IMG/VR virus record: IMGVR_UViG_3300031758_000014
From: an uncultured virus (IMG/VR IMGVR_UViG_3300031758_000014)
Lineage: Duplodnaviria > Heunggongvirae > Uroviricota > Caudoviricetes
Direction: 5' to 3' (one strand)
Length of the DNA stretch: 62,753 bases
The position numbers and the translations under genes were made by a program. Shown one piece after another: positions 3,408 to 25,833 of this stretch (position 1 is the stretch's first letter; each line of letters begins with the position of its first letter). The notes under the pieces are model-generated. The model saw only the letters and a program-made list of their open reading frames with translations. It was not told where the DNA came from and did no database searches.

Positions 3408-3481
3408 TGGAGAATACCGGAATCGAACCGGTCACCTCTTGTCTGCCAGACAAGCGCTCTAGCCAAATGAGCTAATTCCCC
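3408..3481 (-). tRNA. tRNA-Ala(GGC)
   Basis: Cloverleaf GGGGAAT...CT GGC AG...ATTCTCCA with G3:U70. Confidence 0.92.
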
Positions 3482-3487
3482 AATTAA

Positions 3488-3627
3488 GTAGAGAAATTTA
3501 GATGAGTGTGTTTTTACTATGCTATCCATTACACCACCACCGCATTATTTTTATTTGAGCGGTGACCAGGACTCGAACCTGGATCAGTCGTTTGAAATAC
3601 GAAGTAACACTCGTTCTTTACTACTAC
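3488..3627 (-). ncRNA. Circularly permuted tRNA-Glu(TTC)-like RNA closed by a conserved stem module (YrlA-like architecture)
   Basis: Order on the RNA: module 5' strand, anticodon loop, T arm CCAGG TTCGAGT CCTGG, acceptor 3' strand TCACCGC, AT-rich loop, acceptor 5' strand GCGGTGG, D arm, module 3' strand. Confidence 0.8.
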
Positions 3628-3631
3628 TTTG

Positions 3632-3703
3632 AGCGAGAAATGAGATTCGAACTCACGACACTCTGGTTGGTAACCAGATACTCTACCACTGAGCTATTCT
3701 CGC
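3632..3703 (-). tRNA. tRNA-Gly(ACC), unusual A34 anticodon
   Basis: GCGAGAA..TCTGG TT ACC AA CCAGA..TTCTCGC T; Gly-type acceptor and U73. Confidence 0.85.
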
Positions 3704-3714
3704 AATTACAAAAG

Positions 3715-3861
3715 TTAAACTTTCAACTTTTGTTTTCTTTTTCTTTTGATCATCTTCATTATGAATTTGAATACATGATCATTTGCATCCTTTCTTAATT
3801 TTACCTTTGATGATTCGAAACTTCCCGTTAATACTTCTTTACTTTTTTTCATTTGTTTCAT
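3715..3861 (-). CDS. small basic hypothetical protein (48 aa, MKQMKKSKEV...)
   Basis: Manually translated ORF between tRNAs. Confidence 0.4.
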   Translation of the reverse strand: MKQMKKSKEVLTGSFESSKVKLRKDANDHVFKFIMKMIKRKRKQKLKV

Positions 3862-3877
3862 ATTTTTATTTTTTGTG

Positions 3878-3951
3878 TGGAGCTAGGGGTGTACGATACC
3901 CCATCTCCGCATTGCAAGTGCGGTATGTTAGCCAGTTGTCACCATAGCCCC
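3878..3951 (-). tRNA. tRNA-Ala(TGC), atypical T loop
   Basis: GGGGCTA acceptor with G3:U70; CT TGC AA loop; T loop ATCGTAC. Confidence 0.85.
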
Positions 3952-3996
3952 AAATTGAAGGAAGACTAACCTTCGTTGTAACTTAAAGTCTTTTTG

Positions 3997-4084
3997 AGCA
4001 GGTAGTGGGATTCGAACCCACGATGTGAACCTTATCTGACCGGATTGGAAATCCGGAGCCATCGACCAACTAGGCGACACCTGC
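3997..4084 (-). tRNA. tRNA-Gly(TCC) with long variable region
   Basis: CCGGA TT TCC AA TCCGG; about 18-nt variable region; canonical T arm; U73. Confidence 0.8.
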
Positions 4085-4621
4085 ATGTATTTCTCTATGA
4101 CAATTAGAACAAACTAAAATACATTTATCTAATTCATTTTTTATTCTATCCCAAGAAAGATTATATTTCCCGGAGATTGTAAAATCTTTTTCACTCGGAT
4201 TGGTATGATGAAAATCAAGTGCTTGAATACATTTATTATACCCACATAAAATACATTCACCACCTTTATACTCAACCGATTTTATTTTTAACATTGTTCT
4301 TCTTTTCAATCTATAAATTTTAGAATTTTTTTTAGCTGCATCACTATCAACCCTCTTAATATCAGCATGTTTAATTACTGTTGTTTCTGAAATTCCAAAA
4401 TATATAGATGTTTCTTTTTTTGTGTGTGTTTTATAATATTCTTTTAATTGTAAAATTTCATCTTCATTTAACTCTTTATATTTTTTTAATCCAATATCAC
4501 TTAGTCCATTTTCCTTACACCATTTTGATACTATTGATTTTGAACATTTTAATATTTCACTTATTTTATTTAAACTGAATCCATTTTTTCTCAATTCAAT
4601 TATTTTACTTTCCAAACTCAT
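4070..4621 (-). CDS. HTH-HNH homing-endonuclease-like protein
   Basis: CxxC, LDFHH, CILVCSNCHREIH; stop codon overlaps the tRNA 5' end. Confidence 0.85.
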   Translation of the reverse strand: MSLESKIIELRKNGFSLNKISEILKCSKSIVSKWCKENGLSDIGLKKYKELNEDEILQLKEYYKTHTKKETSIYFGISETTVIKHADIKRVDSDAAKKNSKIYRLKRRTMLKIKSVEYKGGECILCGYNKCIQALDFHHTNPSEKDFTISGKYNLSWDRIKNELDKCILVCSNCHREIHAGVA

Positions 4622-4677
4622 ATACTTTCCAATTCTTTCTTATATATATTAAAGTATATGGGTTCTCACCCAAAATG

Positions 4678-4758
4678 TCGATAGGGTGGGATTCGAACCC
4701 ACGTTTTCAACTTCCCGCTACGGATATTCAATGTATAAGATTGAACCGGTACCTATCG
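4678..4758 (-). tRNA. tRNA-Ile(TAT)-like RNA lacking a D arm, long variable region
   Basis: CGATAGG/CCTATCG acceptor; TTCAAT CT TAT AC ATTGAA; GTGGG TTCGAAT CCCAC. Confidence 0.65.
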
Positions 4759-4828
4759 TTTTAATTCTTTTCGTGAATCACTCGGTGGATTTTGATAGAC
4801 CAGTAGACCACTTACTACCTGTTTCTTA

Positions 4829-5143
4829 TTATAACTTTATAAATGTTTCACTCTTAATTGATTTACTAATCCATCTAGCTAATTCAGAACCTCTAATTTC
4901 AGCTTCAAATCTAGTTGTGCCTAAATCTTCTGATAAAATAACAGTTTCTACTTCATACATAGATAAACCACTTTCATCATTAAATGTTGGTCCTTCTTGT
5001 GTTGTTGATATTGGGAATTGGTATAACTCACCAAATACTTCAACATTGTAATATAAATTACCAGCGATATAGTGACTGAATCTTGCCATTGTTTTAGACT
5101 TCATTAAGTCTTTTTTTACTTCTACTTCATTAAACATAATCAT
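4829..5143 (-). CDS. hypothetical protein
   Basis: ORF track. Confidence 0.65.
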   Translation of the reverse strand: MIMFNEVEVKKDLMKSKTMARFSHYIAGNLYYNVEVFGELYQFPISTTQEGPTFNDESGLSMYEVETVILSEDLGTTRFEAEIRGSELARWISKSIKSETFIKL

Positions 5144-5157
5144 TTATTTTTTATTTG

Positions 5158-5240
5158 TTGGAAGGGAGGGATTCGAACCCCCGTACCCGTTAGGGAGCGG
5201 ATTTACAGTCCGCCGCATTTAACCACTCTGCCACCTTCCA
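5158..5240 (-). tRNA. tRNA-Tyr(GTA)
   Basis: GCGGA CT GTA AA TCCGC with Tyr-type variable arm. Confidence 0.92.
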
Positions 5241-5254
5241 GTTTTTATTTCATT

Positions 5255-5881
5255 TTATTTTTTTAATCTTCCCAATTCCCATCCTTCAGGGATTATCTCA
5301 TTTTTTTTTATTTTTTTATTCTCATACCCATTTGTTATCCAACAAGTTCCAAATTGAGAATTATTCTCACCTTTTTGAATTTCACTCAACTTTTCACTTA
5401 TCTTAATTTTAGATTCTTGTGAATGTTTTTTACCACTGAAACCTTTACTATTTAAATTATTTTTATTACCTTTTAGTTTATTTGATATTTTTTTTATCCA
5501 ATTATCTTTAAAATCAATATCTTTCCTTTTTTCATTTAGTCTATCATTACCAGCTTTAGAACATTTCATTTGATGTTCCTCATCTTTAAATCCACCACTA
5601 CCACCAACTCTCAAATTCATACAAAGAGTTTCATTTATTAGATTTGATGTAATAAGATCAATTTCCGCTTTTATCAGTTCATCTCTATTATCATAAAATT
5701 CCAATATTTCAATTTTAAAATTCTCTTTACCATACTTTCTTATTGAGTATCTTAATTTTTTACCAGATCCCAAATATCCATCGTTTAAATTATTTGTACT
5801 GTGCATACCATAATAATAATTATGATTTATCAAATTTGTCGTTTTATACAAATAGTGATAACATTTAATTTTTCTTGGCAT
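5255..5881 (-). CDS. Seg-like GIY-YIG homing endonuclease with NUMOD3-type motif
   Basis: YLYKTTNLIN..YYGMHST..DGYLGSG; KKHSQESKIKISE. Confidence 0.8.
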   Translation of the reverse strand: MPRKIKCYHYLYKTTNLINHNYYYGMHSTNNLNDGYLGSGKKLRYSIRKYGKENFKIEILEFYDNRDELIKAEIDLITSNLINETLCMNLRVGGSGGFKDEEHQMKCSKAGNDRLNEKRKDIDFKDNWIKKISNKLKGNKNNLNSKGFSGKKHSQESKIKISEKLSEIQKGENNSQFGTCWITNGYENKKIKKNEIIPEGWELGRLKK

Positions 5882-5937
5882 TTTTAAATTTTATTTTTAT
5901 TTATATATTAAATATAATAGTACAAAAATGTCTAAAG

Positions 5938-6005
5938 TGGGAGACGTGAGACTCGAACTCACCTGCTAGGATTTTACAGATCCGGCCGTCACCATAACCC
6001 CTCCC
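5938..6005 (-). tRNA. degenerate tRNA-Tyr(GTA)-like gene with shortened D arm
   Basis: GGAT CT GTA AA ATCC; GTGAG TTCGAGT CTCAC; GGGAG/CTCCC acceptor. Confidence 0.6.
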
Positions 6006-6016
6006 AAGTATAAACT

Positions 6017-6048
6017 AAAAAACCCAACTGATTTTGTCAGTTGGGTTT
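6017..6048 (-). terminator. attenuator terminator of tRNA cluster A
   Basis: AAACCCAACTGA/TCAGTTGGGTTT hairpin plus U-run. Confidence 0.88.
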
Positions 6049-6073
6049 CATAATATTTTTTTATTAAAATATA

Positions 6074-6169
6074 TTATAATACACTTTTACTGACAATAGG
6101 TAATCTATACCCCGCCTCATAAGCCTCGTAGCCTCTCGCTTCTATTGATATGTTAACTATTGTTCTCAT
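6074..6169 (-). CDS. leader peptide A: MRTIVNISIEARGYEAYEAGYRLPIVSKSVL
   Basis: Manual translation; E/A/G/Y/I-rich core matches downstream tRNAs; TTGTCAGT antiterminator. Confidence 0.85.
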   Translation of the reverse strand: MRTIVNISIEARGYEAYEAGYRLPIVSKSVL

Positions 6170-6203
6170 TGTATATTTTTTTAATTGTTTTTATTTTACT
6201 CTA

Positions 6204-6234
6204 CAAAGATACGGAAGTTTTTTAAAACACCAAA
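6204..6234 (-). promoter_or_regulatory. Bacteroidota-type sigma-A promoter of cluster A
   Basis: TTTG-N19-TAtcTTTG on the minus strand. Confidence 0.8.
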
Positions 6235-6254
6235 TCTTTTTATATTTTTTTTAG

Positions 6255-6328
6255 TAGCGGGAGCTGGATTCGAACCAACGACCTCAAGGTTATGAGCCTT
6301 GCGAGCTACCAGACTGCTCTATCCCGCG
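6255..6328 (-). tRNA. initiator-type tRNA-Met(CAT)
   Basis: CGCGGGA start with C1 mismatch, A11:U24, CT CAT AA loop. Confidence 0.88.
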
Positions 6329-6432
6329 ATGTAAGTATATATATTAAAAAGTTTTTCTTCCTTTTTAATTTTTATGATATTTTTTTGAAAAAGTTTAAAA
6401 AAACTTTATATTTTTTTATAAATATATACAAT

Positions 6433-6633
6433 ATGGATGATTTAGTAAGAAAAATTGGAGTTGAAAAGATAAAAGTTTTTGAAAAAGACCTTGATTACTT
6501 TATTGATTATTATAAAGATAAAGCTTTATCACAAGGATATAAAGGTGATTTAAAATTTAAAAAAGAGGGTCCAAATATTATTATATTTGTTAAACTTATT
6601 TATGAGGATAATAATTCTTCTGAATATAAATAG
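6433..6633 (+). CDS. hypothetical protein (MDDLVRK...)
   Basis: Start reassigned downstream of AATATATA motif; upstream part of the track ORF is antisense to the tRNA. Confidence 0.55.
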   Translation: MDDLVRKIGVEKIKVFEKDLDYFIDYYKDKALSQGYKGDLKFKKEGPNIIIFVKLIYEDNNSSEYK

Positions 6634-6838
6634 TTTCACCTAATCTATATTTATTCACACTAAAAACAAATGTATCACCACAATCTGTTACTATTGTATA
6701 TTTAGGTTTTACATCTAAAGTAGATCCGACTTCTTCTTCAATTTGAGTTACTACACATTCTTTAAACTCAACTTTTGGTTTATTTGAATGATAACAACCA
6801 CTTATAATTAAAGTTAATATAAATAATAAATGTTTCAT
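6596..6838 (-). CDS. putative lipoprotein
   Basis: Signal peptide ending IISGC. Confidence 0.6.
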   Translation of the reverse strand: MKHLLFILTLIISGCYHSNKPKVEFKECVVTQIEEEVGSTLDVKPKYTIVTDCGDTFVFSVNKYRLGETIYIQKNYYPHK

Positions 6839-6841
6839 AAT

Positions 6842-7597: not shown

Positions 7598-7710
7598 ATC
7601 TTTTTTATTTTTTTTCTTCTCTTCATTTGTAAAAAGTTAAGCTTCATAGTAAAACTATTTGGATATAATGAAGCGAAGTCAAAATTTATCATTTTCCATT
7701 TATCTTCCAT
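7579..7710 (-). CDS. 43-aa mini-protein carrying family-B DNA polymerase motif A (FDFASLYP)
   Basis: Manual translation MEDKWKMINFDFASLYPNSFTMKLNFLQMKRRKKIKKIWKIEI; overlaps both neighbours. Confidence 0.6.
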   Translation of the reverse strand: MEDKWKMINFDFASLYPNSFTMKLNFLQMKRRKKIKKIWKIEI

Positions 7711-7891
7711 ATATCTTTTTAATTTTAATTTTACGATCGTGTGCTTTCATTAAAGATTTACTTGCCTTTAACCATCTTTCTATATAATCTTGATCACCAG
7801 ACTCAAGATCAATATTAAAGTATTTTCCTGAATTACCATATGATGGTAACACTCTTATGCTATTATATAAGTTTGGATCAAATGTTTTCAT
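7700..7891 (-). CDS. hypothetical protein with C-terminal tag variant (RKIKIKKIY)
   Basis: ORF track. Confidence 0.6.
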   Translation of the reverse strand: MKTFDPNLYNSIRVLPSYGNSGKYFNIDLESGDQDYIERWLKASKSLMKAHDRKIKIKKIYGR

Positions 7892-14904: not shown

Positions 14905-14938
14905 ATAAATTATAAAGCTATTTATTTAAAAAGTTTAG

Positions 14939-15027
14939 TCTAAGTGATGGGACTCGAACCCACATAGAACTTTTACATTCATTCCTGATCCCAAATCAGG
15001 TCGGCGACCAATTGCCTACACACCTAG
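14939..15027 (-). tRNA. tRNA-Pro(TGG) with long variable region
   Basis: CCTGA TT TGG GA TCAGG; about 20-nt variable region. Confidence 0.8.
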
Positions 15028-15090
15028 TTGTTGGAATTATTTTACTCTATTCCCAAAGAGTACCTTTTACCGCCAAACAGTTACTTTGTG

Positions 15091-15162
15091 CGGTCTATGA
15101 GGGAATCGAACCCTCACCATCTGATAGACAGTCAGATATCCTAACCATTGGACCAATAGACC
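15091..15162 (-). tRNA. tRNA-Asp(GTC)
   Basis: TCTGA CT GTC TA TCAGA; G73. Confidence 0.9.
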
Positions 15163-15169
15163 TTATTTG

Positions 15170-15244
15170 TAGGGTAGACCGGACTCGAACCGACACTATG
15201 TCCTCATCCCAAATGAGGCGGCCTACCAATTGGCCAACTACCCT
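15170..15244 (-). tRNA. tRNA-Pro(TGG)
   Basis: CCTCA TT TGG GA TGAGG. Confidence 0.88.
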
Positions 15245-15290
15245 ATAATGTGAATTATTTTTACTCTATTCACAAAGAGATTATATTTTG

Positions 15291-15362
15291 TTGTGAAGAT
15301 AGGACTCGAACCTATATTTTTCATCTTCAAAGGATGATGTCCTGCCATTAGACGACTTCACA
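15291..15362 (-). tRNA. tRNA-Gln(TTG)
   Basis: U1:A72; TCATC CT TTG AA GATGA. Confidence 0.9.
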
Positions 15363-15365: not shown

Positions 15366-16010
15366 TTAATTTAATTCATTTTCATATATTTTTATCCATT
15401 TTCTTATAGCATTATCACTAACACCATATTTTCTACCAGTTGAAGAGTATCCATTTTTTATAATTTCTGCCTTTAAAACTTCATAACTCGGTCTTTCCAC
15501 TTTTCTACGACTTAATCTAACTTTACTTTTCTTTTTTATATCTTTTTTTCTACTAATATTTTTACCACAATGAGTTTCTAGTCCAGCATTACAGTTAGGA
15601 CAAACTATTCTCAAATTTTCTAATCTATTATCATTATATACACCATTTATATGGTCTAAAATTAGAGAGATTTTCATACCATTCCAATTTTCATCCTGAC
15701 CACAAATCTCACATACTCTATTTTTAAGACCATCTTCATATAATCTATTTTTTAAGTGTGTTCTTGAATAGGTTGAATTTTCCACCAAAACTAAGGATAG
15801 ATCAATTTTACTATTTCTCATCTTATTTACCATAACCTCCCATTTCTGAGTGAAGTGAGAAGTGTCAATGTTGTATATTTCTAAATACTTTTTTATTGTC
15901 TTAAAATTACCACCAGCACTTCTTAGTCCAATGTTTTCAAGAGCTTCTTTTAAGCTATTAGATTTTTTTACTATTTCTTCTAATAAATCTTTTTCCCATT
16001 TTATTTTCAT
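15366..16010 (-). CDS. HNH endonuclease with C-terminal HTH
   Basis: CEICG..LDHING..DNRLENLRIVCPNC; GVSDNAIRKW. Confidence 0.85.
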   Translation of the reverse strand: MKIKWEKDLLEEIVKKSNSLKEALENIGLRSAGGNFKTIKKYLEIYNIDTSHFTQKWEVMVNKMRNSKIDLSLVLVENSTYSRTHLKNRLYEDGLKNRVCEICGQDENWNGMKISLILDHINGVYNDNRLENLRIVCPNCNAGLETHCGKNISRKKDIKKKSKVRLSRRKVERPSYEVLKAEIIKNGYSSTGRKYGVSDNAIRKWIKIYENELN

Positions 16011-16086
16011 ATGTATTTTTATTTTTATATATTAAAATCCGAACTTAAAAAAATACTAAAAATTAGGTTCGAGTTGAGTATAAAAT

Positions 16087-16120
16087 AAAAAAACCCAGTT
16101 AATCTTTGACTAACCGGGTT
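16087..16120 (-). terminator. attenuator terminator of tRNA cluster B
   Basis: AACCCGGUUAGUC/GAUUAACUGGGUU hairpin (G:U pairs form only on the minus strand) plus U-run. Confidence 0.88.
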
Positions 16121-16142
16121 CATATCATTTAAAGTTTTTTAT

Positions 16143-16244
16143 TTAACTTTTAGACAATAGAGCGTTAGTCCCAAATACTTTAGGTTGATCCTGATCTTGG
16201 ATTTGCGGGTTAACTACTGCGATATTTACGTTAAAAGTTTTCAT
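16143..16244 (-). CDS. leader peptide B: MKTFNVNIAVVNPQIQDQDQPKVFGTNALLSKS
   Basis: Manual translation; PQIQDQDQP core matches Gln/Pro/Asp/Pro tRNAs; GACTAAC antiterminator. Confidence 0.88.
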   Translation of the reverse strand: MKTFNVNIAVVNPQIQDQDQPKVFGTNALLSKS

Positions 16245-16295
16245 AATAATAATGTATATATAAAGTTTTTATTCTCTCTTTTTAATTTTATGATA

Positions 16296-16327
16296 CAAAG
16301 ATATAAAAGTTTTTAATATCTACCAAA
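16296..16327 (-). promoter_or_regulatory. Bacteroidota-type sigma-A promoter of cluster B
   Basis: TTTG-N20-TAtcTTTG. Confidence 0.8.
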
Positions 16328-17060: not shown

Positions 17061-17091
17061 ATATTTATATATTAAATATAAAATTCTTTTT

Positions 17092-19079: not shown

Positions 19080-19081
19080 TT

Positions 19082-19309
19082 ATGTTTGTTATTATGTGTA
19101 AATTTAGAATTGGTGATATAGTTGAAATAGTTGCTATACCAAATAGTGAGTTATATAAAGTTATTAAATTTGATGGTGTTTTCATTGTTTGTAGAAACAT
19201 AAAACACTGTGATAATATAAAATATTCAGAGACATATTTCTTTGAGAGTGAGATTCATCTAAATAAATCCGAAACTAGAGATAATATTATAGATAACTTA
19301 TTAAGTTGA
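19082..19309 (+). CDS. hypothetical SH3-like protein with C-terminal tag (RDNIIDNLL)
   Basis: FRIGDIV; shared motif. Confidence 0.65.
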   Translation: MFVIMCKFRIGDIVEIVAIPNSELYKVIKFDGVFIVCRNIKHCDNIKYSETYFFESEIHLNKSETRDNIIDNLLS

Positions 19310-20006
19310 TTTTATCCATTTTCTGATAGCATTATCAGATACTCCATATCTTCGACCAGTCTCTTTATATCCAAACTCTTTTATTTCTTTTAATAAATCT
19401 TCAACCGATGGTCTATCTACTTTTCTAATTGATGTAGAATGACATTTATTACACATTTTGGATGTTTTTTTTATTTGTTTTCCACAAATACAATATTTAT
19501 TTTTAGATTTTTTATCATATTTTGATTTTCTTAGTTCCGATGAACTGCTCTTTTTTGTGGATTTACAGTATGTACTTGTCTGACTATGACAATTTGGACA
19601 CAATATTCTTAGATTTTCTAATCTATTATCTAAATTATCACCATTTTTATGATCTAAATGTAATGATATTGGTTTATCATTCCAGTTTTCTATACCACAT
19701 TCTTCACATTCATATATCTTTAAACCCTCATCAATTAGTCTTTTTTTAAGTTTATGTGTATTTGTATATGTTGAATTTTCAACTAAAATGTCTTCTATTG
19801 GGTATTTTTTATTAAAAGATCTGAATTTATCACCAGTGTTCCATGCCCTTCCGGTAATGACTTATATCAATATTATAAATATTGAAATATTTTTTTAAAC
19901 TCTTGTAGTTACCACCGATTGGTCTTATTCCAAGTTTTCTACAAACATCCGCTATTGATAGCGATTCAATAACAAATCTTTCTAATAAATCTTTATCATA
20001 CTTCAT
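19301..20006 (-). pseudogene. frameshifted HNH endonuclease (paralogue of 15366..16010)
   Basis: ATG at 20006 reads MKYDKDLLE..GGNYKSLKKY..IDISH; frame shifts near 19855 into TGRAWN..LDHKNG..ENLRILCPNCH..GVSDNAIRKW. Confidence 0.8.
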
Positions 20007-20076
20007 TATTATACATTTTAATTTTTTTTATATATTAAAATGTGTAGTCTTCCTTTACCAATGACTTTTAAGTTCG

Positions 20077-20159
20077 TACTCCTGGAGGGAGTTGAACCCT
20101 CACCCAAATCTATGGACAGCATTTTAAGTGCTGCGTGTCTGCCATTCCACCACAGGAGC
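20077..20159 (-). tRNA. tRNA-Leu(TAA)
   Basis: CAGCA CT TAA AA TGCTG; class II variable arm; A73. Confidence 0.9.
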
Positions 20160-20165
20160 AAATAA

Positions 20166-20269
20166 ATAGAGGAAAGTTTCAAAGAGTGAATGTGGATTTG
20201 AACCACTAAGTTTGATTTTAAGTCAAATTGTAAACCATTTACGAAGTAACTCTTTTGATCACCATCTAT
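20166..20269 (-). ncRNA. tRNA-like RNA (TAA anticodon loop) whose acceptor stem is replaced by the conserved stem module
   Basis: ATAGA TGGTGA TCAAAAGAGT TACTT, then D/anticodon/T hairpins, then ACTCTTTGA AACTTTCC TCTAT. Confidence 0.7.
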
Positions 20270-20273
20270 TTAG

Positions 20274-20346
20274 TTGGGAATGTGGGTTACGATCCCACTA
20301 CCTTTAGTATGTAACACTAACGCTCTCCCGATTGAGCTAATTCCCA
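20274..20346 (-). tRNA. tRNA-Val(TAC), T loop ATCGTAA
   Basis: TTAGT GT TAC AT ACTAA. Confidence 0.85.
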
Positions 20347-20355
20347 GTATTTTAG

Positions 20356-20428
20356 TAGGAGATATGGGTTACGATCCCATTGCCTTCACCATGTCGAAGT
20401 GACGCTCTACCAATTGAGCTAATCTCCT
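20356..20428 (-). tRNA. tRNA-Val(GAC), C33 and T loop ATCGTAA
   Basis: TCACT TC GAC AT GGTGA. Confidence 0.82.
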
Positions 20429-20437
20429 ATTATTTAG

Positions 20438-20507
20438 TACCGCACGTGAGGTTCGAACTCACTTAGTCAACCATATGAGGGTCGACCCTTTTCCACTAAG
20501 CCGCGGC
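20438..20507 (-). tRNA. atypical tRNA with CAT anticodon (Met or Ile2), shortened D arm
   Basis: GTCGACC CT CAT AT GGTTGAC; GTGAG TTCGAAC CTCAC. Confidence 0.6.
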
Positions 20508-20517
20508 ATTTACTTTG

Positions 20518-20591
20518 AGCACCAGGAGGGATTTGAACCCCCGTTAATACGCTTTGCAGGCGTATGCCTAAAACCACTCGACCACTGGTGC
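20518..20591 (-). tRNA. tRNA-Cys(GCA)
   Basis: TACGC CT GCA AA GCGTA; U73. Confidence 0.9.
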
Positions 20592-20596
20592 GTGTC

Positions 20597-21307
20597 TTAT
20601 TTTAACCATTTTCTTATAGTGTTATCAGAAACACCATATTTTCTACCAACCGATGAATATCCTAATTCAGATACCTCATGCTTAAGTTCTTCTATATCTG
20701 GTCTAATATTTTTTCGTTGTAGTAGTTTATAACATATATTACAATTAGTGGATTTTGAATTCATGAAATTACCACAACTACATTTTTTTTTATTTTCTTT
20801 TATTTTTTTCTCTTTCTCTTTTACTTTCTTTTTATTATTTTCACTCTTTGTCTTTTTACCAGAATAATTATCTGTTTTAGAATGACAATTTGGACATAAT
20901 ATCATTAGATTACTTAGATTATTATTAAATCTATCACCATCTATATGATGTAACTCAATTGGTATCTTCTCACCTAACCACTCACTTAAATTACAACTCT
21001 CACATATGTGATTTTTTATCCCGTCTTCTATTAACTTATTCTTTAATTTATGACTTGATAAATAAATATTATTATTTATATAATAAAGAGCTTCTTTTCT
21101 ACTATTTGATATTTTATACCCTTTAGCCCCTTGATTACCAAAATATTCAATACCCATTATATCTAAGTATGAATTAAGTGTGGAGTATCTACAATTTAAT
21201 ATTTTACATATTTCTATTTTTGGTTTATTTTCACTAACCATACTAATTATCAAATCTCTTTTCTCTAATATATCATGTCTCATTTTTTTTAATTCTTTTT
21301 TATACAC
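20597..21307 (-). CDS. HNH endonuclease with C-terminal HTH
   Basis: CESC..ELHHIDGD..NN...LCPNCHS; GVSDNTIRKW. Confidence 0.85.
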   Translation of the reverse strand: MYKKELKKMRHDILEKRDLIISMVSENKPKIEICKILNCRYSTLNSYLDIMGIEYFGNQGAKGYKISNSRKEALYYINNNIYLSSHKLKNKLIEDGIKNHICESCNLSEWLGEKIPIELHHIDGDRFNNNLSNLMILCPNCHSKTDNYSGKKTKSENNKKKVKEKEKKIKENKKKCSCGNFMNSKSTNCNICYKLLQRKNIRPDIEELKHEVSELGYSSVGRKYGVSDNTIRKWLK

Positions 21308-21335
21308 TATATATAAAAAAGTAATGTGTCTGTTG

Positions 21336-21426
21336 TATCAGTGGTCGGACTCGAACCGACAATGTTTTCCACGTGGGTATTAGTTCCTAAGACTAACGCG
21401 TTTCAACCAAATTTCGCCACACTGAC
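21336..21426 (-). tRNA. tRNA-Leu(TAG)
   Basis: TTAGT CT TAG GA ACTAA; long variable arm. Confidence 0.9.
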
Positions 21427-21432
21427 ATATCG

Positions 21433-21504
21433 AGCTGATGGAGGGACTTGAACCCCCATTTCATCTTTACAAGAGACGAGTAATGACCGTTATACGACAT
21501 CAGC
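21433..21504 (-). tRNA. tRNA-Thr(TGT)
   Basis: CGTCT CT TGT AA AGATG; GCTGATG acceptor. Confidence 0.88.
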
Positions 21505-21510
21505 ATTTAG

Positions 21511-21583
21511 TAGTTGATGCGGGTTACGATCCCACTACCTCCGACGTATCAGATCGGCGCTCTACCAATTGAGCTAATCAACT
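21511..21583 (-). tRNA. tRNA-Ile(GAT), T loop ATCGTAA
   Basis: CCGAT CT GAT AC GTCGG. Confidence 0.88.
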
Positions 21584-21589
21584 ATTTAG

Positions 21590-21662
21590 TAGTCCTACCG
21601 GGATTCGAACCCAGACGAAACGCTTAGAAGGCGCTTATGCTATCCAGTTACATCATAGAACC
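21590..21662 (-). tRNA. tRNA-Arg(TCT)
   Basis: AGCGC CT TCT AA GCGTT. Confidence 0.88.
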
Positions 21663-21670
21663 ATTTTTTG

Positions 21671-21755
21671 TCGGTAGGGTGGGATTTGAACCCACGTTAT
21701 ACTTTCGTATCCAGTGTATCAGACTGGTCCCTGAAAACCGCTCGGGTACCTACCG
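21671..21755 (-). tRNA. tRNA-Ile(GAT) with long variable arm
   Basis: CCAGT CT GAT AC ACTGG; ATAC GAAA GTAT variable hairpin. Confidence 0.8.
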
Positions 21756-22315
21756 TTTAATCTATCTAATCTTTTTTGTTCTTCTAAATTGAAATGTATT
21801 TCACCATGACAATTTCTACAAACTAAAATACATTTATCAACTTCACTTTTTAATTTCTCAAAAGAGTTTGTTTTTCCACTAATTGTAAAGTCTTTCTCTT
21901 CGGGGTTTAAATGGTGGAATTCTAATGATGTTATACATTTGTTATAACCACATATTTCACAATTATTACCTTTATACTCTACTAATTTTATTTTAACTCT
22001 TCTTCTCCATTCTATTACATTTCTCGAATTTCTATTATCTTCTCTTAATTTATCTGATTTATTTTTATATCTTTTAATTGTACTTATAGATAAGTTAAAT
22101 TTATCAGAAGCCTCTTTTATACTATGATTTTCACAATATTTTTTTATTTCATTTATATCCAAATCATTTACTTTTTTAAGTTTACCAATATCATTCATTC
22201 CATATCTCTTACAATGATATCCAATTGTCGATTTAGATATTTTTAGTTCTTTACTTATTTCATCATAACTTTTACCTTCATTTCTTAATTCAATTATTTT
22301 ATCTTTTGTTTTCAT
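21719..22315 (-). CDS. HTH-HNH endonuclease (paralogue of 4070..4621)
   Basis: CEICGYNKC..LEFHH..CILVCRNCHGEIH; 3' end overlaps tRNA-Ile. Confidence 0.85.
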   Translation of the reverse strand: MKTKDKIIELRNEGKSYDEISKELKISKSTIGYHCKRYGMNDIGKLKKVNDLDINEIKKYCENHSIKEASDKFNLSISTIKRYKNKSDKLREDNRNSRNVIEWRRRVKIKLVEYKGNNCEICGYNKCITSLEFHHLNPEEKDFTISGKTNSFEKLKSEVDKCILVCRNCHGEIHFNLEEQKRLDRLNGRYPSGFQGPV

Positions 22316-22383
22316 AATCTCTAATATATTTTACTTATATATTAAAACTTATGAGCTTTCTTTAACCATTTTGGTTAAGTTAG

Positions 22384-22457
22384 CGGATTTGATAGGACTC
22401 GAACCTACTATCTTCTGCTTAACAGGCAGTAGCTTATACCACTTAAGCTTCAAATCC
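22384..22457 (-). tRNA. tRNA-Asn(GTT)
   Basis: CTGC CT GTT AA GCAG; G73. Confidence 0.85.
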
Positions 22458-22469
22458 TTTATATTTTTG

Positions 22470-22557
22470 AGGGCCCGGTAGGATTCGAACCTACTTTATT
22501 TCAATTTTTCATACAGTGATTAACAGTCACCAGCTAAAACCATTAAGCTACTGACCC
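22470..22557 (-). tRNA. tRNA-Asn(GTT) with long variable region
   Basis: GGTGA CT GTT AA TCACT; about 20-nt A-rich variable region. Confidence 0.72.
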
Positions 22558-22568
22558 GTATGTAAAAT

Positions 22569-22602
22569 AAAAAACCCTCAGATTTTTTGTCTGAGGGTTT
22601 TT
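22569..22602 (-). terminator. attenuator terminator of tRNA cluster C
   Basis: AAAAACCCTCAGA/TCTGAGGGTTTTT hairpin. Confidence 0.88.
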
Positions 22603-22625
22603 CAAGTTTTTTATTCTATAAAAAT

Positions 22626-22742
22626 TTATAGAGTAGTTAAGTCATGAAAACCCTCACTATGTCTAATACATAACGTATTTAACACCATCACTGTATTCAG
22701 TGTGTTATTTACATTAATCATATTTAAGTTAATAGTTCTCAT
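22626..22742 (-). CDS. leader peptide C: MRTINLNMINVNNTLNTVMVLNTLCIRHSEGFHDLTTL
   Basis: Manual translation; first 27 residues use only N/L/M/I/V/T/C/R, matching the cluster; TGAGGGTTTT antiterminator. Confidence 0.85.
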   Translation of the reverse strand: MRTINLNMINVNNTLNTVMVLNTLCIRHSEGFHDLTTL

Positions 22743-22788
22743 TGTTTTTATATTTTAATTGTTTTTATTCTGTTTTAATTTTACTTTA

Positions 22789-22922
22789 CAAAGATACAAA
22801 AGTTTTTTAAATATCCAAAAAGTTTTTTTAATTTTTTATTATATATTAAAAAACTTTTCTCCCTTTTGTGTTTTTGTTATATTTATACTACAAATTTAGT
22901 AAAAAGTTTTAAATATACCAAA
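22789..22922 (-). promoter_or_regulatory. tandem Bacteroidota-type promoters of cluster C
   Basis: TTTG-N19-TAtcTTTG (22789-22819) and TTTG-N20-TAaaTTTG (22891-22922), with a TAATATATA motif between. Confidence 0.78.
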
Positions 22923-22925
22923 TTT

Positions 22926-23327
22926 TTATAATATTTTTTTCCAAAATCTTTCTGGAAGATGTATGTTCTCAATATTTACACACTCATTAAATAGTGGTGC
23001 AACATCTTTTGGTTTTAATCCAGCTAAACCACATCCTACTTCAGTTACTAAAAATATCAAATTCTGATTGTTTTTAGCAAATTCAATAAAATCATCAACA
23101 AATGGTTTTATCTCAACTATTGAAAGTGTTCTTCTAATAGAAGCGTCTTTGGTTGGTATTCCATAAGTTCTACCTTGTAAACCAGCGGCTTGACCCCATT
23201 TAGCTCCCCAGGTAAGAGCTTGTTTAGCTGCTCCTTTTCCGTGTCTACCAGATAAATTAGAACCAAAAACAAATATTTCATTTGTGTTTAGTTTTGTGAT
23301 GTTATCTGATGTTACTCTATTTTCCAT
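22926..23327 (-). CDS. macrodomain-like phage protein (A1S_2505-type)
   Basis: IFVFGSNL.G.HG.GAA; YGIPTK; VTEVGCGLAG. Confidence 0.75.
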   Translation of the reverse strand: MENRVTSDNITKLNTNEIFVFGSNLSGRHGKGAAKQALTWGAKWGQAAGLQGRTYGIPTKDASIRRTLSIVEIKPFVDDFIEFAKNNQNLIFLVTEVGCGLAGLKPKDVAPLFNECVNIENIHLPERFWKKIL

Positions 23328-23356
23328 ACGTGTTATATTAAAAATGAATAATAAGT

Positions 23357-23653
23357 TTATCTACCTCTTTTTCTATTGTGTGTTGTTGTACTATCATAGA
23401 AGTCAGGTTCTTTTTTAGAAACCCATTTTATGAATTTTTCCATCTCTGGATGTTCTTTAACCAACTCAGCATTATTATAATTCTTTTCTAATTCTTTTTC
23501 TGTAAATAATGAATGTATTTTTCGGTGACATATTTTATGTAACCATTCAGTTTCTTTACCACCTCTACATTTGGGAAGGAAATGGTGACGATCAACAAAT
23601 TGATTTTCCCACATTTCTCTATCACAAATAGGACAAATGCCAATTACTTTCAT
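23357..23653 (-). CDS. small HNH endonuclease
   Basis: MKVIGICPICD..HHFLPK..H.ICH.KIH; upstream part of the track ORF is tRNA-Ser. Confidence 0.8.
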   Translation of the reverse strand: MKVIGICPICDREMWENQFVDRHHFLPKCRGGKETEWLHKICHRKIHSLFTEKELEKNYNNAELVKEHPEMEKFIKWVSKKEPDFYDSTTTHNRKRGR

Positions 23654-23656
23654 AAG

Positions 23657-23743
23657 AGGAAGAAGTGGGAGTCGAACCCAGCCCGAGTTAACGAGCCCTT
23701 GTTTTCCAAACAAGTGAGAGGACCACCTCTTCTCGCATCTTCC
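23657..23743 (-). tRNA. tRNA-Ser(GGA)
   Basis: CTTGT TT GGA AA ACAAG; long variable arm. Confidence 0.8.
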
Positions 23744-23745
23744 GT

Positions 23746-23832
23746 TGGCGGAGAGCAGAGTATTCGAAACCCACACGTTGTCGTGCCACTCGCTTAGCAG
23801 GCGGTGCTGAGGACCTCCTCAGTTTACTCTCC
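23746..23832 (-). tRNA. tRNA-Ser(GCT)
   Basis: CT GCT AA loop; long variable arm; GCCA end. Confidence 0.82.
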
Positions 23833-23840
23833 ATTTATTT

Positions 23841-23927
23841 TGGCGGAAGAGTGAGGTATCGATCCCCATACCTTTCGGTACCACTAGTTTTCAAGACTAG
23901 GTCAAGCGCCAGCTTAATTACTCTTCC
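23841..23927 (-). tRNA. tRNA-Ser(TGA)
   Basis: CTAGT CT TGA AA ACTAG; long variable arm; GCCA end. Confidence 0.85.
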
Positions 23928-23935
23928 ATATGTTG

Positions 23936-24021
23936 CGGAAAGAGAGGGATTCGAACCCTCGGATCTTGTTTCAGATCTACGGTTTTCAAGACCGCTCCAC
24001 TCAACCAACGTTACCCTTTCC
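23936..24021 (-). tRNA. tRNA-Ser(TGA)
   Basis: GCGGT CT TGA AA ACCGT; long variable arm. Confidence 0.85.
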
Positions 24022-24029
24022 AATTTTTG

Positions 24030-24101
24030 TAGTCATAGAGGGAATTGAACCCCCACCTGATCGTTCGTAGCGACCTGTCCTATCCGTTAGACGATATGAC
24101 T
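24030..24101 (-). tRNA. tRNA-Arg(ACG)
   Basis: GGTCG CT ACG AA CGATC. Confidence 0.88.
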
Positions 24102-24105
24102 AAAT

Positions 24106-24138
24106 AAAAAAACCCTCAGATTATTAATCCGAGGGTTT
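24106..24138 (-). terminator. attenuator terminator of tRNA cluster D
   Basis: AAACCCUCGGAUUA/UAAUCUGAGGGUUU hairpin plus U-run. Confidence 0.88.
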
Positions 24139-24163
24139 ATTATATAATATTATTATTACCTAA

Positions 24164-24238
24164 TTATAAACACAATCGGATTACATGTCCACTACTCGAG
24201 CGACTTGACGAAACTAATATGTTTAAAATTGTTCTCAT
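24164..24238 (-). CDS. leader peptide D: MRTILNILVSSSRSSSGHVIRLCL
   Basis: Manual translation; SSSRSSS matches Arg(ACG) plus four Ser tRNAs; TAATCCGA antiterminator. Confidence 0.9.
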   Translation of the reverse strand: MRTILNILVSSSRSSSGHVIRLCL

Positions 24239-24296
24239 AATATTTTTTATTTCTTTGTTTATATATTACAAATGTAATACTTCCTTTTTAATTTTC

Positions 24297-24509
24297 CTAA
24301 TTTATTATTTCTTTTATTTCTTCTATTGTAAAAAGTTTACCTTTATTATCATTTTCACATTTAGTATAACCTTCAATAAATGCTTCAATTATATTTTTAT
24401 CGGTTATTCCTTTTTCTTCTGCCCATTTTTGAGCTTTCTTTTCAATCTTAGAAGGTTTTCTTCTATGATATGGTGTTAAGTCAGTATAGTTATCACTTCT
24501 TTCTGGCAT
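24297..24509 (-). CDS. hypothetical protein
   Basis: ORF track. Confidence 0.55.
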   Translation of the reverse strand: MPERSDNYTDLTPYHRRKPSKIEKKAQKWAEEKGITDKNIIEAFIEGYTKCENDNKGKLFTIEEIKEIIN

Positions 24510-24526
24510 ATTTGTTTTTTATTTTT

Positions 24527-24657
24527 TGGTAGGGAGATGGGACTCGAACCCATGACCACGCGGTTAACAGCCGAAGTAACTCTTCTAATCAACACTCTTT
24601 CGAGGTAAAGTTATAGAAAAGTAAAGTACGTGCTCTACCAACTGAGCTACTCCCTAC
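24527..24657 (-). tRNA. tRNA-Asn(GTT) interrupted by a 55-nt structured insertion between positions 28 and 29
   Basis: Removing 24574-24628 restores CGCGG CT GTT AA CCGCG; the insert is the conserved module closed by CTC-GAAA-GAG. Confidence 0.8.
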
Positions 24658-24674
24658 ATATATATTTTAATTTG

Positions 24675-24746
24675 TTGCCCCGGTGGGGATTGAACCCACG
24701 ATCCCCTGATTAAGAGTCAGGTGCTTTACCACTCAGCTACAAGGCA
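24675..24746 (-). tRNA. tRNA-Lys(CTT)
   Basis: CCTGA CT CTT AA TCAGG. Confidence 0.88.
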
Positions 24747-24752
24747 ATTTAG

Positions 24753-24825
24753 TGGAGCCGACGGGTTACGATCCCGTTCCTCTGGTTTTTCAGACCAGCG
24801 CAATGACCACATCTGCCACAGCTCC
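24753..24825 (-). tRNA. tRNA-Phe(GAA)
   Basis: CTGGT CT GAA AA ACCAG; identical to 25243-25315. Confidence 0.88.
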
Positions 24826-24835
24826 TTATATTTTG

Positions 24836-24909
24836 GGTGAATAACGGGCTACGATCCCGCGACCTCTGGATTCACAATCCAGCGCTCTTACCAACTGAGC
24901 TATATTCAC
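24836..24909 (-). tRNA. tRNA-His(GTG)
   Basis: CTGGA TT GTG AA TCCAG; C73. Confidence 0.88.
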
Positions 24910-24911
24910 AG

Positions 24912-24984
24912 TGACCCCGGTGGGTTACGATCCCACTCTCCCCATATTAAAAGTATGGTGCTTTCCCGATTAAGCTACGAAGTC
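24912..24984 (-). tRNA. tRNA-Lys(TTT)
   Basis: CCATA CT TTT AA TATGG; T loop ATCGTAA. Confidence 0.86.
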
Positions 24985-24994
24985 ATATTTTTAG

Positions 24995-25065
24995 CACGGG
25001 TACCAAGATTCGAACTCGGAACAACGGTTTTGGAGACCGGCATGATACCATTTCACTATACCCGT
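24995..25065 (-). tRNA. tRNA-Trp(CCA)
   Basis: CGGT CT CCA AA ACCG; G73. Confidence 0.88.
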
Positions 25066-25074
25066 GTATGTTAG

Positions 25075-25147
25075 CGCGTCACCAAGGACTCGAACCCTGA
25101 CCCTTCGGGTTGGAACCGAAGATGCTAAGCCATTACACCAATGACGC
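25075..25147 (-). tRNA. tRNA-Trp(CCA)
   Basis: TTCGG TT CCA AC CCGAA; G73. Confidence 0.85.
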
Positions 25148-25158
25148 TTGTATTTTAG

Positions 25159-25232
25159 TGACCCCGGTGGGATTCGAACCCACGGTCTTCCGATTAAAAG
25201 TCGGAGGCTTGAACCAACTCAGCTACGAAGTC
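25159..25232 (-). tRNA. tRNA-Lys(TTT)
   Basis: TCCGA CT TTT AA TCGGA; identical to 25410-25483. Confidence 0.9.
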
Positions 25233-25242
25233 ATATTTTTAG

Positions 25243-25315
25243 TGGAGCCGACGGGTTACGATCCCGTTCCTCTGGTTTTTCAGACCAGCGCAATGACCAC
25301 ATCTGCCACAGCTCC
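25243..25315 (-). tRNA. tRNA-Phe(GAA)
   Basis: Identical copy of 24753-24825. Confidence 0.88.
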
Positions 25316-25323
25316 TTATTTTG

Positions 25324-25398
25324 GGTGTACGACCGGTAACGATCCGGCTATCTTCACTTTCACAGAGTGACGGGTCTACCATTTCCCCTTCATACACC
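25324..25398 (-). tRNA. tRNA-His(GTG)
   Basis: G-1:C73; TCACT CT GTG AA AGTGA. Confidence 0.86.
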
Positions 25399-25409
25399 AT
25401 TTATTTTAG

Positions 25410-25483
25410 TGACCCCGGTGGGATTCGAACCCACGGTCTTCCGATTAAAAGTCGGAGGCTTGAACCAACTCAGCTACGAAGTC
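25410..25483 (-). tRNA. tRNA-Lys(TTT)
   Basis: TCCGA CT TTT AA TCGGA. Confidence 0.9.
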
Positions 25484-25492
25484 ATAAGAAAC

Positions 25493-25521
25493 AAAAAAAC
25501 CCAAGTCTTTTGAACTTGGGT
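25493..25521 (-). terminator. attenuator terminator of tRNA cluster E
   Basis: ACCCAAGU/ACUUGGGU hairpin plus U-run. Confidence 0.86.
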
Positions 25522-25543
25522 CTGTTTGTAGTTATATTTTATT

Positions 25544-25663
25544 TTATAAAGTCGTTAAGTCTTCAAAAAATAAACACAATACTTTTCCAGTACCAAGTTC
25601 TGATTTATTGCTAAACCATTTGCTTGATTTACTAAAATGTTTATGTTTATTAATTGTTCTCAT
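25544..25663 (-). CDS. leader peptide E: MRTINKHKHFSKSSKWFSNKSELGTGKVLCLFFEDLTTL
   Basis: Manual translation; K/H/F/W/N core matches the cluster; GAACTTGG antiterminator. Confidence 0.88.
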   Translation of the reverse strand: MRTINKHKHFSKSSKWFSNKSELGTGKVLCLFFEDLTTL

Positions 25664-25711
25664 TATTTCTATATATTAAAAGTTTTTTCTCTCTTTGTTA
25701 ATTTTATACTA

Positions 25712-25833
25712 CAAATTTAATAAAAGTTTTTATATCTACCAAATTATTTGTAAAAATTATTGAAAATTGTATCTAAATCGTTTCCTTTTTCAATAACAAT
25801 ACAAATATAAGGAGATTATTTTAATCTACCAAA
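25712..25833 (-). promoter_or_regulatory. tandem Bacteroidota-type promoters of cluster E
   Basis: TTTG-N20-TAaaTTTG (25712-25743) and TTTG-N20-TAtaTTTG (25802-25833). Confidence 0.78.

Follow-up and report, generated by a model that had tools for sequence, protein, structure and literature searches.

What are short open reading frames (ORFs) and intrinsic terminators doing in front of the transfer RNA (tRNA) gene clusters of a phage? We raise this question for a stretch of 62,753 nucleotides (nt) from an uncultured virus (Caudoviricetes; IMG/VR record IMGVR_UViG_3300031758_000014), the whole of which is referred to as the window, where five minus-strand cassettes, each consisting of a promoter, an ORF of 24-39 codons, an intrinsic terminator and tRNA genes, were all found at the places where an initial annotation, made from the sequence alone, had put them (Table 1). 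The translated ORFs (the leaders, L1 to L5) also have the termini that it described, i.e. four begin with MRTI and one with MKTF, and two end with DLTTL. We report that this layout is real and lies far beyond chance, and our sequence comparisons and folding models suggest, with a probability of roughly 0.8, that each cassette is a ribosome-mediated (leader-peptide) attenuator of the kind known from trp, his and ilv, which here controls a tRNA operon and acts as a demand sensor.

The window is AT-rich (GC content 0.23-0.36). ARAGORN with default settings predicted 33 tRNA genes within 3407-25483, every one on the minus strand, and the Rfam search of the whole window at gathering score gave 34 matches, all to tRNA or tRNA-Sec models. 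The five cassettes head every elongator tRNA cluster of the window and the five operons combined serve all 20 amino acids. The nearest relatives are huge uncultured phages (LR745206.1, LR756502.1 and LR756504.1) with a DNA identity of ~72%. We searched the window and, in these three genomes, the tRNA regions with one candidate rule: a terminator hairpin of <= -11 kcal/mol with a tRNA gene <=1 kb downstream, and the longest ATG-initiated ORF of 12-70 codons ending <=130 nt from the hairpin. This gave 27 candidates, two of which (locus L006 at 3544, and L012) were judged to be wrong picks and were kept in the statistics. A second sample comprised IMG/VR loci fetched via the HNH endonuclease (80 loci, 71 of them with tRNA genes, and 701 tRNAs), and removal of four window-identical loci and of duplicate peptides left 76 loci and 34 candidates.

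The window terminators are GC-rich hairpins (-13.6 to -17.6 kcal/mol) followed by T-runs, and they start 20-25 nt after each ORF; in nearly all candidates the distance between the stop codon and the hairpin is 19-33 nt. From the end of the T-run to the first tRNA gene there are -1 to 5 nt in the cassettes of L3, L4 and L5, and -3 to 17 nt in most of the candidates. The terminator thus abuts the first tRNA gene, which leaves no room for a separate promoter, and transcription can therefore reach the tRNA genes only through the terminator. In the cassette of L1 the terminator is followed next by a degenerate tRNA-like element, and in that of L2 by an inserted HNH ORF (15366-16010), which precedes the first tRNA gene. 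At the other end of the cassettes the pattern TTGG-N15-22-TANNTTTGTA was found six times in the window (one copy each for L1 and L2, two each for L3 and L5), always on the minus strand and upstream of a leader, where 0.36 copies were expected and none of 100 shuffles reached six. We take this pattern to fit the -33/-7 promoter consensus of Bacteroidota. A different motif, AARGRGA-N8-TTTWATATATA, is present in 10 copies (<=2 mismatches) compared with 0.46 expected, including 6338-6363, 17066-17091, 20029-20054, 21308-21333 and 22840-22865; it is often located just 5' of start codons, is also seen before the initiator-like tRNA gene, and may represent a phage promoter or initiation region.

The content of the leaders follows the tRNA genes behind them. 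Specifically, when the five window leaders were paired with the five operons the true pairing was the best of the 120 permutations at the amino acid as well as the codon level, and 14 of 30 codons in L1 and 27 of 37 in L3 are read by anticodons of their own operon. The initial annotation had proposed a comparison of leaders and anticodon sets in related genomes against shuffled pairings, and this came out in its favour: for the 27 candidates the fraction of residues having a tRNA in the own operon was 0.394, compared with 0.175 in permuted pairings (standard deviation 0.021, z = 10.3; 0/100,000 permutations reached the observed value), and at the codon/anticodon level, with conservative wobble rules, 0.349 compared with 0.147. 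The match depends on the reading frame (0.38 in the frame of the ORF vs 0.17 and 0.11 in the other two). It was seen again among the 34 further candidates, which derive from unrelated viral contigs (0.38 vs 0.291 permuted, z = 6.1, 0/100,000), where the coverage of operon amino acids by the leader was weakly raised (z = 1.8). Examples of such pairs are MKAMILSLCLSLSLSLQKLG..., which precedes Leu, Leu, Ser, Cys, Ser, Ser, Leu and Leu tRNAs, MTTSFQQQQQQQINRTD before four Gln tRNAs, MRTILIIKKKKRDAIPIKIE before three Lys tRNAs, MKTIAMIIRMRIIRPKMLG before Arg(tct), Ile and Met tRNAs, and MKTQMKHKNFSNPCQNWLVSYQTIRMVHG..., followed by twelve different tRNAs, each of which is represented in the leader. 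The claim that each leader core is made of the amino acids of the following tRNAs stands statistically and does not stand for every residue, as the core residues Arg AGA (L1), Ile (L2) and Ser (L5) are without a tRNA in the own operon.

Each leader also contains a short stretch, here called segment 2, that is the perfect complement of part of the terminator 5' arm. A length of 7-10 nt had been claimed for these complements and the longest were found to be 8, 7, 10, 8 and 8 nt for L1-L5, with p-values of 0.003, 0.060, 0.007, 0.010 and 0.040, respectively (300 dinucleotide shuffles). For 21 of the 27 candidates the duplex of leader and arm was predicted to be stronger than in dinucleotide shuffles (n = 300, p <= 0.05). 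Segment 2 starts at codon 19-29 and the matched residues are concentrated upstream of it (68/110 vs 9/50 in the window, Fisher p = 2e-7; 203/450 vs 40/189 overall). Moreover, the covariation that had been noted is borne out between orthologues, where changes in segment 2 are accompanied by changes in the terminator arm: the Ser/Arg orthologues carry TAATCCGA, AGATTCGA and AGGTTCGA as segment 2 opposite the arms TCGGATTA, TCGAATCT and TCGAACTT, with the 3' arm following, and the Lys/His/Phe/Trp and Glu/Tyr orthologue groups show a like covariation of segment 2 and arm. The covariation was taken from duplex predictions because MAFFT set the terminators of the three-sequence alignments out of register.

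We propose the following course of events. A strong host-type promoter would start a transcript whose first ~100 nt encode a peptide of 24-39 codons, the middle of which is written in codons read by the downstream tRNAs (on the statistical match), while segment 2, positioned just 3' of these control codons, could pair with the terminator 5' arm (on complementarity and covariation). With fast decoding the ribosome would follow RNA polymerase and cover segment 2, so that the terminator forms and the transcript ends before the tRNA genes. With a scarce cognate charged tRNA the ribosome would stall upstream, segment 2 would pair with the terminator arm and the polymerase would read through into the tRNA genes. 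What is sensed would be how fast the codons read by these same tRNAs are decoded, and a stall at one control codon, whichever it is, would be enough to open the set as a whole. The conserved M-(R/K)-T start of the leaders (AAA/AGA, ACN) may serve efficient initiation. The outcome would be a negative-feedback "tRNA-stat" with five sets, each made on demand and off when the supply suffices. Possible causes of the shortage are codon usage that does not match the host's, host shut-off, starvation and anticodon nucleases; a link to anticodon-nuclease defence is speculation.

Folding of the leader transcripts agrees with part of this scheme. Folds that end before the terminator 3' arm gave the antiterminator in L1-L4. 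The ribosome was modelled with a 30-nt footprint in a crude equilibrium folding without kinetics. For L5 without a ribosome segment 2 was predicted to pair with the control-codon region (a 1:2 "protector"), with the ribosome on codons 6-17 it pairs with the terminator arm, and with the ribosome on codon 20 it pairs with neither, which in the model is the trp pattern. Taken over the 27 candidates, the modelled antiterminator was present with a ribosome on early or control codons and was lost when segment 2 was covered.

Several results weigh against attenuation as proposed here. In the same crude model the antiterminator forms without any ribosome in 20/27 candidates, it re-forms with a ribosome at the stop codon in 17/27, including L2 and L3 of the window, and for L2 it forms at every ribosome position; the trp-like 1:2 protector is predicted in some leaders only, e.g. 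L5. The L2 duplex is also no better than shuffles (p = 0.326), one of the six candidates that fail this comparison. Counted over the whole ORF the match at codon level is just 0.22-0.73, the Arg AGA codons of L1 and the Ser codons of L5 have no cognate tRNA in their own operon, and neither Ser(tga) nor Ser(gga) of the L4 operon reads the three AGT Ser codons of that leader. These AGT codons (24176-24211) are kept in all three Ser/Arg orthologues (with loci L001 and L002), whose operons have no Ser(gct), and Ser swaps between the TCN and AGY codon families in the orthologues; this is a hint that amino acid identity (charging), and not the isoacceptor alone, may count. Since the antiterminator re-forms at the stop codon, termination must rest on kinetic coupling of ribosome and polymerase, and such coupling, with the local 3:4 hairpin winning the race, is an assumption for these hosts. 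Of the claim that a stalled ribosome frees the antiterminator, the part that stands is its formation with a ribosome on the control codons; given its formation in 20/27 without a ribosome, it seems from the models that translation masks the antiterminator rather than that stalling frees it. The reading of the cassettes as ribosome-mediated attenuators is upheld by the codon match, its frame and position, the covariation and the terminator geometry, and the wording of the initial annotation that the tRNAs are transcribed only when the matching host tRNAs are depleted is too strong.

The folding results bear also on an alternative with the opposite sign, in which read-through requires the leader to be translated (e.g. 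through hindrance of the terminator by the ribosome) and a lack of tRNA shuts the operon, i.e. a feed-forward circuit. The antiterminator that re-forms behind a ribosome at the stop codon in 17/27 candidates speaks for it, as a terminating ribosome alone does not enforce termination. We nevertheless regard it as unlikely, considering that 19-33 nt separate the stop codon from the hairpin downstream, which puts the hairpin beyond the reach of the ribosome, that the matched codons are placed upstream of segment 2 and not over it, and that a modelled ribosome on the control codons leaves the antiterminator intact; stopping tRNA synthesis during a tRNA shortage would also have no evident use.

The frame dependence of the match, together with a conserved ATG and a stop codon that bound it, argues against leaders that act as untranslated RNA, either by binding tRNAs directly via displayed codons in a T-box-like manner or as terminator-ended small RNAs with a function of their own. 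Pairing of tRNA with RNA would indeed also yield codon/anticodon complementarity, and terminated leader transcripts would exist as small RNAs. Alignment gaps within orthologous leader ORFs are multiples of three, though, Ser kept across TCN and AGY codons in the orthologues points to decoding and not to base-pairing, and as many as 12 specificities are found in one leader. Moreover, none of the leader (Trp_leader, His_leader, Leu_leader, Thr_leader), T-box, riboswitch or other cis-regulatory families was found in the window at Rfam gathering score, and we consider this explanation very improbable.

If the leaders are translated, their products might be trans-acting small proteins, with the likeness to the tRNA sets coming from local composition or from common descent of the cassettes. 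The N-termini are conserved among the leaders (M-R/K-T-I/N) and the C-terminus DLTTL is common to two window leaders, as one would expect of such proteins. The ORFs are retained in the orthologues although the DNA identity is only 76-79%, and what is conserved poorly are the peptides themselves, control residues excepted. Pfam and PHROG scans of the five leader peptides gave no family match, permutations that keep the composition still result in z = 10 and z = 6, and the leaders change with the content of the operon, so that we see scant probability in a protein function. Chance, i.e. open frames in AT-rich spacers beside ordinary terminators, is rejected by the permutation, frame and position tests with next to no probability left, since, even if single short ORFs are not rare (in shuffles of the 200 nt before each hairpin, the p-value of a complete ATG-ORF of equal or greater length is 0.008-0.074 for the individual window leaders and reaches 0.52 for the shortest leaders of the relatives), the layout is found in 5/5 cases in the window, in >20 in the relatives and in independent lineages, with a promoter upstream of a terminator that abuts the tRNA genes.

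The comparison with other phages shows how the cassettes vary. The relatives have separate Glu/Tyr and Ile/Gly/Ala leaders and operons, corresponding to one fused operon in the window with one leader carrying all five amino acids, and they have a separate poly-Gln leader before Gln tRNAs; by sequence, the leaders follow the splits and fusions of the operons. In LR756502.1 a Met-like tRNA is located between the promoter and the Glu/Tyr leader (L002 7350-7800). The DLTTL C-terminus, together with similar DNA, is common to leaders 3 and 5 (22626-22643 and 25544-25561, minus strand) and is not kept in the relatives; it is probably a trace of cassette duplication. Among cultured phages, Cellulophaga phage phi10:1 (NC_021802.1) shows the layout: a TANNTTTG-like box is followed by the ORF MLKKWSYSCFSYSFKNGEVIL, which is not annotated, then by a terminator, and after it by tRNA-Tyr, a sub-threshold tRNA-like element (anticodon CCA, Trp-like) and tRNA-Phe (fold z-score -4.5). 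Enterobacterial and other phages sharing the HNH endonuclease (e.g. locus L045) gave no convincing leader by the same pipeline, and the layout is therefore not universal among tRNA-rich phages. Using the 614-amino-acid neighbour protein as search anchor retrieved identical IMG/VR copies only, and a near-identical 67-kb fragment (G001) adds nothing. As to origin, we regard the source of the window as a giant phage of Bacteroidota-type hosts, and the DNA runs containing the window are mostly labelled freshwater or lake. Two metatranscriptome runs contain small shares of the window, with contigs that mostly match tRNA genes of other organisms; a 737-nt contig of X19 spans 25576-25742 with 13 differences, and such contigs give neither ends nor strand, may stem from DNA in the libraries and so speak neither for nor against transcription of the cassettes. 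Bacteroidetes hosts are predicted for the clade of the relatives, according to the huge-phage paper (PMC7162821), and a freshwater lake and a subsurface sample are named as sources of LR756502 and LR745206 in PMC9723777.

Not all tRNA genes were called with the default ARAGORN settings. The Glu, Ile and Met tRNAs named in the initial annotation are outside the default list, and of these Glu(ttc) at 3557-3627 and Met(cat) at 20435-20510 were recovered with relaxed settings or Rfam, and Leu(taa) at 20182-20253, Ser(gga) at 23656-23743 and Ser(tga) at 23841-23927 were added by relaxed ARAGORN and Rfam alignments. Ile(tat) at 4678-4758 (minus strand), which reads AUA, comes from Rfam (39.5 bits) and is missed by ARAGORN even when relaxed; its Rfam alignment shows no D-arm and a variable region of 22 nt. 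The degenerate Tyr(gta)-like element of 68 nt (~5939-6006, minus strand), directly 3' of terminator 1, was detected only at a very relaxed ARAGORN threshold and is possibly the decayed first gene of operon 1. The gene at 24529-24656 (minus strand; Rfam 43.6 bits) has an insertion of 57-68 nt in the anticodon arm. For this gene ARAGORN with introns gives the anticodon tta ("Stop") and without introns Asn(gtt) for the 3' part, and the loop CTGTTAA fits Asn by eye. An ARAGORN tRNA with anticodon tta ("Stop") is also seen in an Asn/His/Thr operon with the leader MRTSNIHINTNTHKHNTTCLSGCDMSIMS on a 372-kb IMG/VR contig (L026), and this could be a suppressor tRNA or a miscall. The tRNA-Met outside the cassettes is taken by us to be initiator-like from its tRNA-fMet features (C1 opposite A72) and not from the call of a tool; the initiator type is the only tRNA type that cannot be sensed by elongating ribosomes.

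Operon 1 is broken up by GIY-YIG and HNH endonuclease ORFs and operon 3 contains two HNH ORFs. Homing-endonuclease-type ORFs inside the tRNA operons, all on the minus strand, are located at 4070-4621, 5255-5881, 15366-16010, 20597-21307, 21719-22315 and 23357-23776, and belong to the types HNH with HTH/NUMOD1 and GIY-YIG with NUMOD3. A further HNH gene seems, on visual inspection, to be broken into two ORFs, 19830-20006 (N-terminal piece) and 19301-19603 (C-terminal piece).

Table 1. Positions of the predicted cassette features and tRNA operons in the window
Feature	Coordinates	Strand	Description
Promoter of cassette 1	6202..6233	-	pattern match TTGG-N-TANNTTTGTA
Leader ORF 1 (L1)	6074..6169	-	31 codons, MRTIVNISIEARGYEAYEAGYRLPIVSKSVL; control codons Ile(ATA), Glu, Ala, Gly, Tyr
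Segment 2, cassette 1	6089..6096	-	TTGTCAGT, complement of terminator 5' arm/loop ACTGACAA
Intrinsic terminator 1	6013..6049	-	13-bp stem, T-run
tRNA operon 1	3407..6006	-	order: Tyr-like (~5939-6006), Tyr(gta), Ile(tat), Gly(tcc), Ala(tgc), Gly(acc), Glu(ttc), Ala(ggc)
Promoter of cassette 2	16294..16326	-	pattern match
Leader ORF 2 (L2)	16143..16244	-	33 codons, MKTFNVNIAVVNPQIQDQDQPKVFGTNALLSKS; control codons Pro, Gln, Asp
Segment 2, cassette 2	16164..16170	-	GACTAAC, complement of GTTAGTC in terminator 5' arm
Intrinsic terminator 2	16086..16121	-	hairpin and T-run
tRNA operon 2	14938..15362	-	Gln(ttg), Pro(tgg), Asp(gtc), Pro(tgg)
Tandem promoters of cassette 3	22787-22818, 22889-22921	-	pattern match
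Leader ORF 3 (L3)	22626..22742	-	38 codons, MRTINLNMINVNNTLNTVMVLNTLCIRHSEGFHDLTTL; control codons Asn, Leu, Met, Ile, Val, Thr, Cys, Arg(AGA)
Segment 2, cassette 3	22647..22656	-	TGAGGGTTTT, complement of AAAACCCTCA in terminator 5' arm
Intrinsic terminator 3	22568..22604	-	T-run ends 5 nt before tRNA-Asn
tRNA operon 3	20076..22557	-	Asn x2, Ile(gat) x2, Arg(tct), Thr(tgt), Leu(tag), Cys, Met(cat), Val(gac), Val(tac), Leu(taa) x2
Variant promoter of cassette 4	24267..24300	-	TTAGG...TACATTTGTA, read by eye; missed by the strict pattern
Leader ORF 4 (L4)	24164..24238	-	24 codons, MRTILNILVSSSRSSSGHVIRLCL; control codons Ser, Arg(CGC)
Segment 2, cassette 4	24176..24183	-	TAATCCGA, complement of TCGGATTA in terminator 5' arm; ends 9 nt before stop codon
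Intrinsic terminator 4	24105..24138	-	abuts tRNA-Arg
tRNA operon 4	23656..24101	-	Arg(acg), Ser(tga) x2, Ser(gga)
Tandem promoters of cassette 5	25710-25742, 25800-25832	-	pattern match
Leader ORF 5 (L5)	25544..25663	-	39 codons, MRTINKHKHFSKSSKWFSNKSELGTGKVLCLFFEDLTTL; control codons Lys, His, Phe, Trp, Asn
Segment 2, cassette 5	25593..25600	-	GAACTTGG, complement of CCAAGTTC in terminator 5' arm
Intrinsic terminator 5	25493..25523	-	T-run ends 2 nt before tRNA-Lys
tRNA operon 5	24529..25483	-	Lys(ttt) x4, Lys(ctt), His x2, Phe x2, Trp x2, Asn(gtt)-like with anticodon-arm insertion
Initiator-like tRNA-Met(cat)	6254..6328	-	outside cassettes, upstream of promoter 1, no leader of its own

Leader-peptide attenuation is known from enterobacteria, where trpL, hisL, leuL and pheL are joined by multivalent leaders such as those of ilvGMEDA (Ile/Leu/Val) and thr (Thr/Ile). 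The window cassettes share with these a promoter-proximal ORF enriched in specific codons, an intrinsic terminator before the structural genes and a segment that can pair with the terminator 5' arm; a 1:2 protector pairing is predicted in some window leaders (L5, L1 and L3), whereas from most leaders studied here a predicted protector hairpin is missing. They differ in that the regulated genes encode tRNAs and not enzymes, so that the sensed and the made product are the same class of molecule, in that up to 8 amino acids are represented in one window leader (at least 12 in other phages), and in being phage-encoded, with TTGG/TANNTTTGTA promoters and no Rfam leader match. By leader-peptide attenuation, as proposed here for the window, the pheM leader of Escherichia coli pheST adjusts part of the translation apparatus to the supply of charged tRNA; unlike the window cassettes it governs a synthetase (phenylalanyl-tRNA synthetase), senses one amino acid and is chromosomal. 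A Phe-rich leader or attenuator at the E. coli tRNA-Phe genes pheV and pheU was rejected on inspection of NC_000913.3, where the promoter is directly before the tRNA gene with no ORF or terminator. T-boxes bind uncharged tRNA without a ribosome through Stem I and the T-box motif, have one specifier, and are known to control synthetase, transport and biosynthesis genes. On the proposed reading, T-boxes and the window cassettes would have in common transcription attenuation, the sensing of tRNA supply via codon-anticodon interaction and the choice between terminator and antiterminator, and in contrast to T-boxes the signal in the window depends on the reading frame and the window has no T-box match.

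Leader-peptide attenuation is a known mechanism and its use for tRNA genes would be new. We found no description of leader-peptide attenuation of tRNA genes in the full-text literature, with subscription-only papers and supplements outside the search. The words leader and attenuat do not occur in the main text of the huge-phage paper (PMC7162821), and leader, attenuat, terminator and promoter are absent from the text of PMC10264068. The tRNA-Lys of phage T5 is reported to counter PARIS (PMC11464382), and phage tRNAs are reported to counter anticodon nucleases (PMC10264068). Phage tRNAs that replace or supplement host tRNAs provide a plausible reason to sense a decoding shortage, and both sources deal with the purpose of phage tRNAs and not with their transcriptional control. 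The control of phage tRNA genes and their role, codon compensation or counter-defence, have been debated for decades (PMC10264068).

If our reading of the cassettes as attenuators is true, tRNA genes would for the first time be seen under the control of leader-peptide attenuation, and the cassettes would constitute a built-in sensor of a host tRNA shortfall or of tRNA-cleaving defences. The phage itself would measure the decoding shortage and respond set by set, and its leader sequences would state which codons it expects to be limiting. The mechanism of trp, his and ilv would be extended to a new class of targets in which the sensed molecule is the product, giving a very short feedback loop, and transcription-translation coupling in Bacteroidota-type hosts would be implied. 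Annotation of phage tRNA operons could make use of the leaders, as could the design of sensors for tRNA availability, and because a cultured Cellulophaga phage carries the layout it can be tested at the bench. Finally, it is likely that Bacteroidota phages, from 50-kb Cellulophaga phages to those of >600 kb, and perhaps other phages, have a modular and self-tuning tRNA supply, in which the 20 amino acids would be divided among a few operons and each operon gated by a "test peptide" that gauges in real time the speed at which the infected cell decodes precisely the codons served by it.

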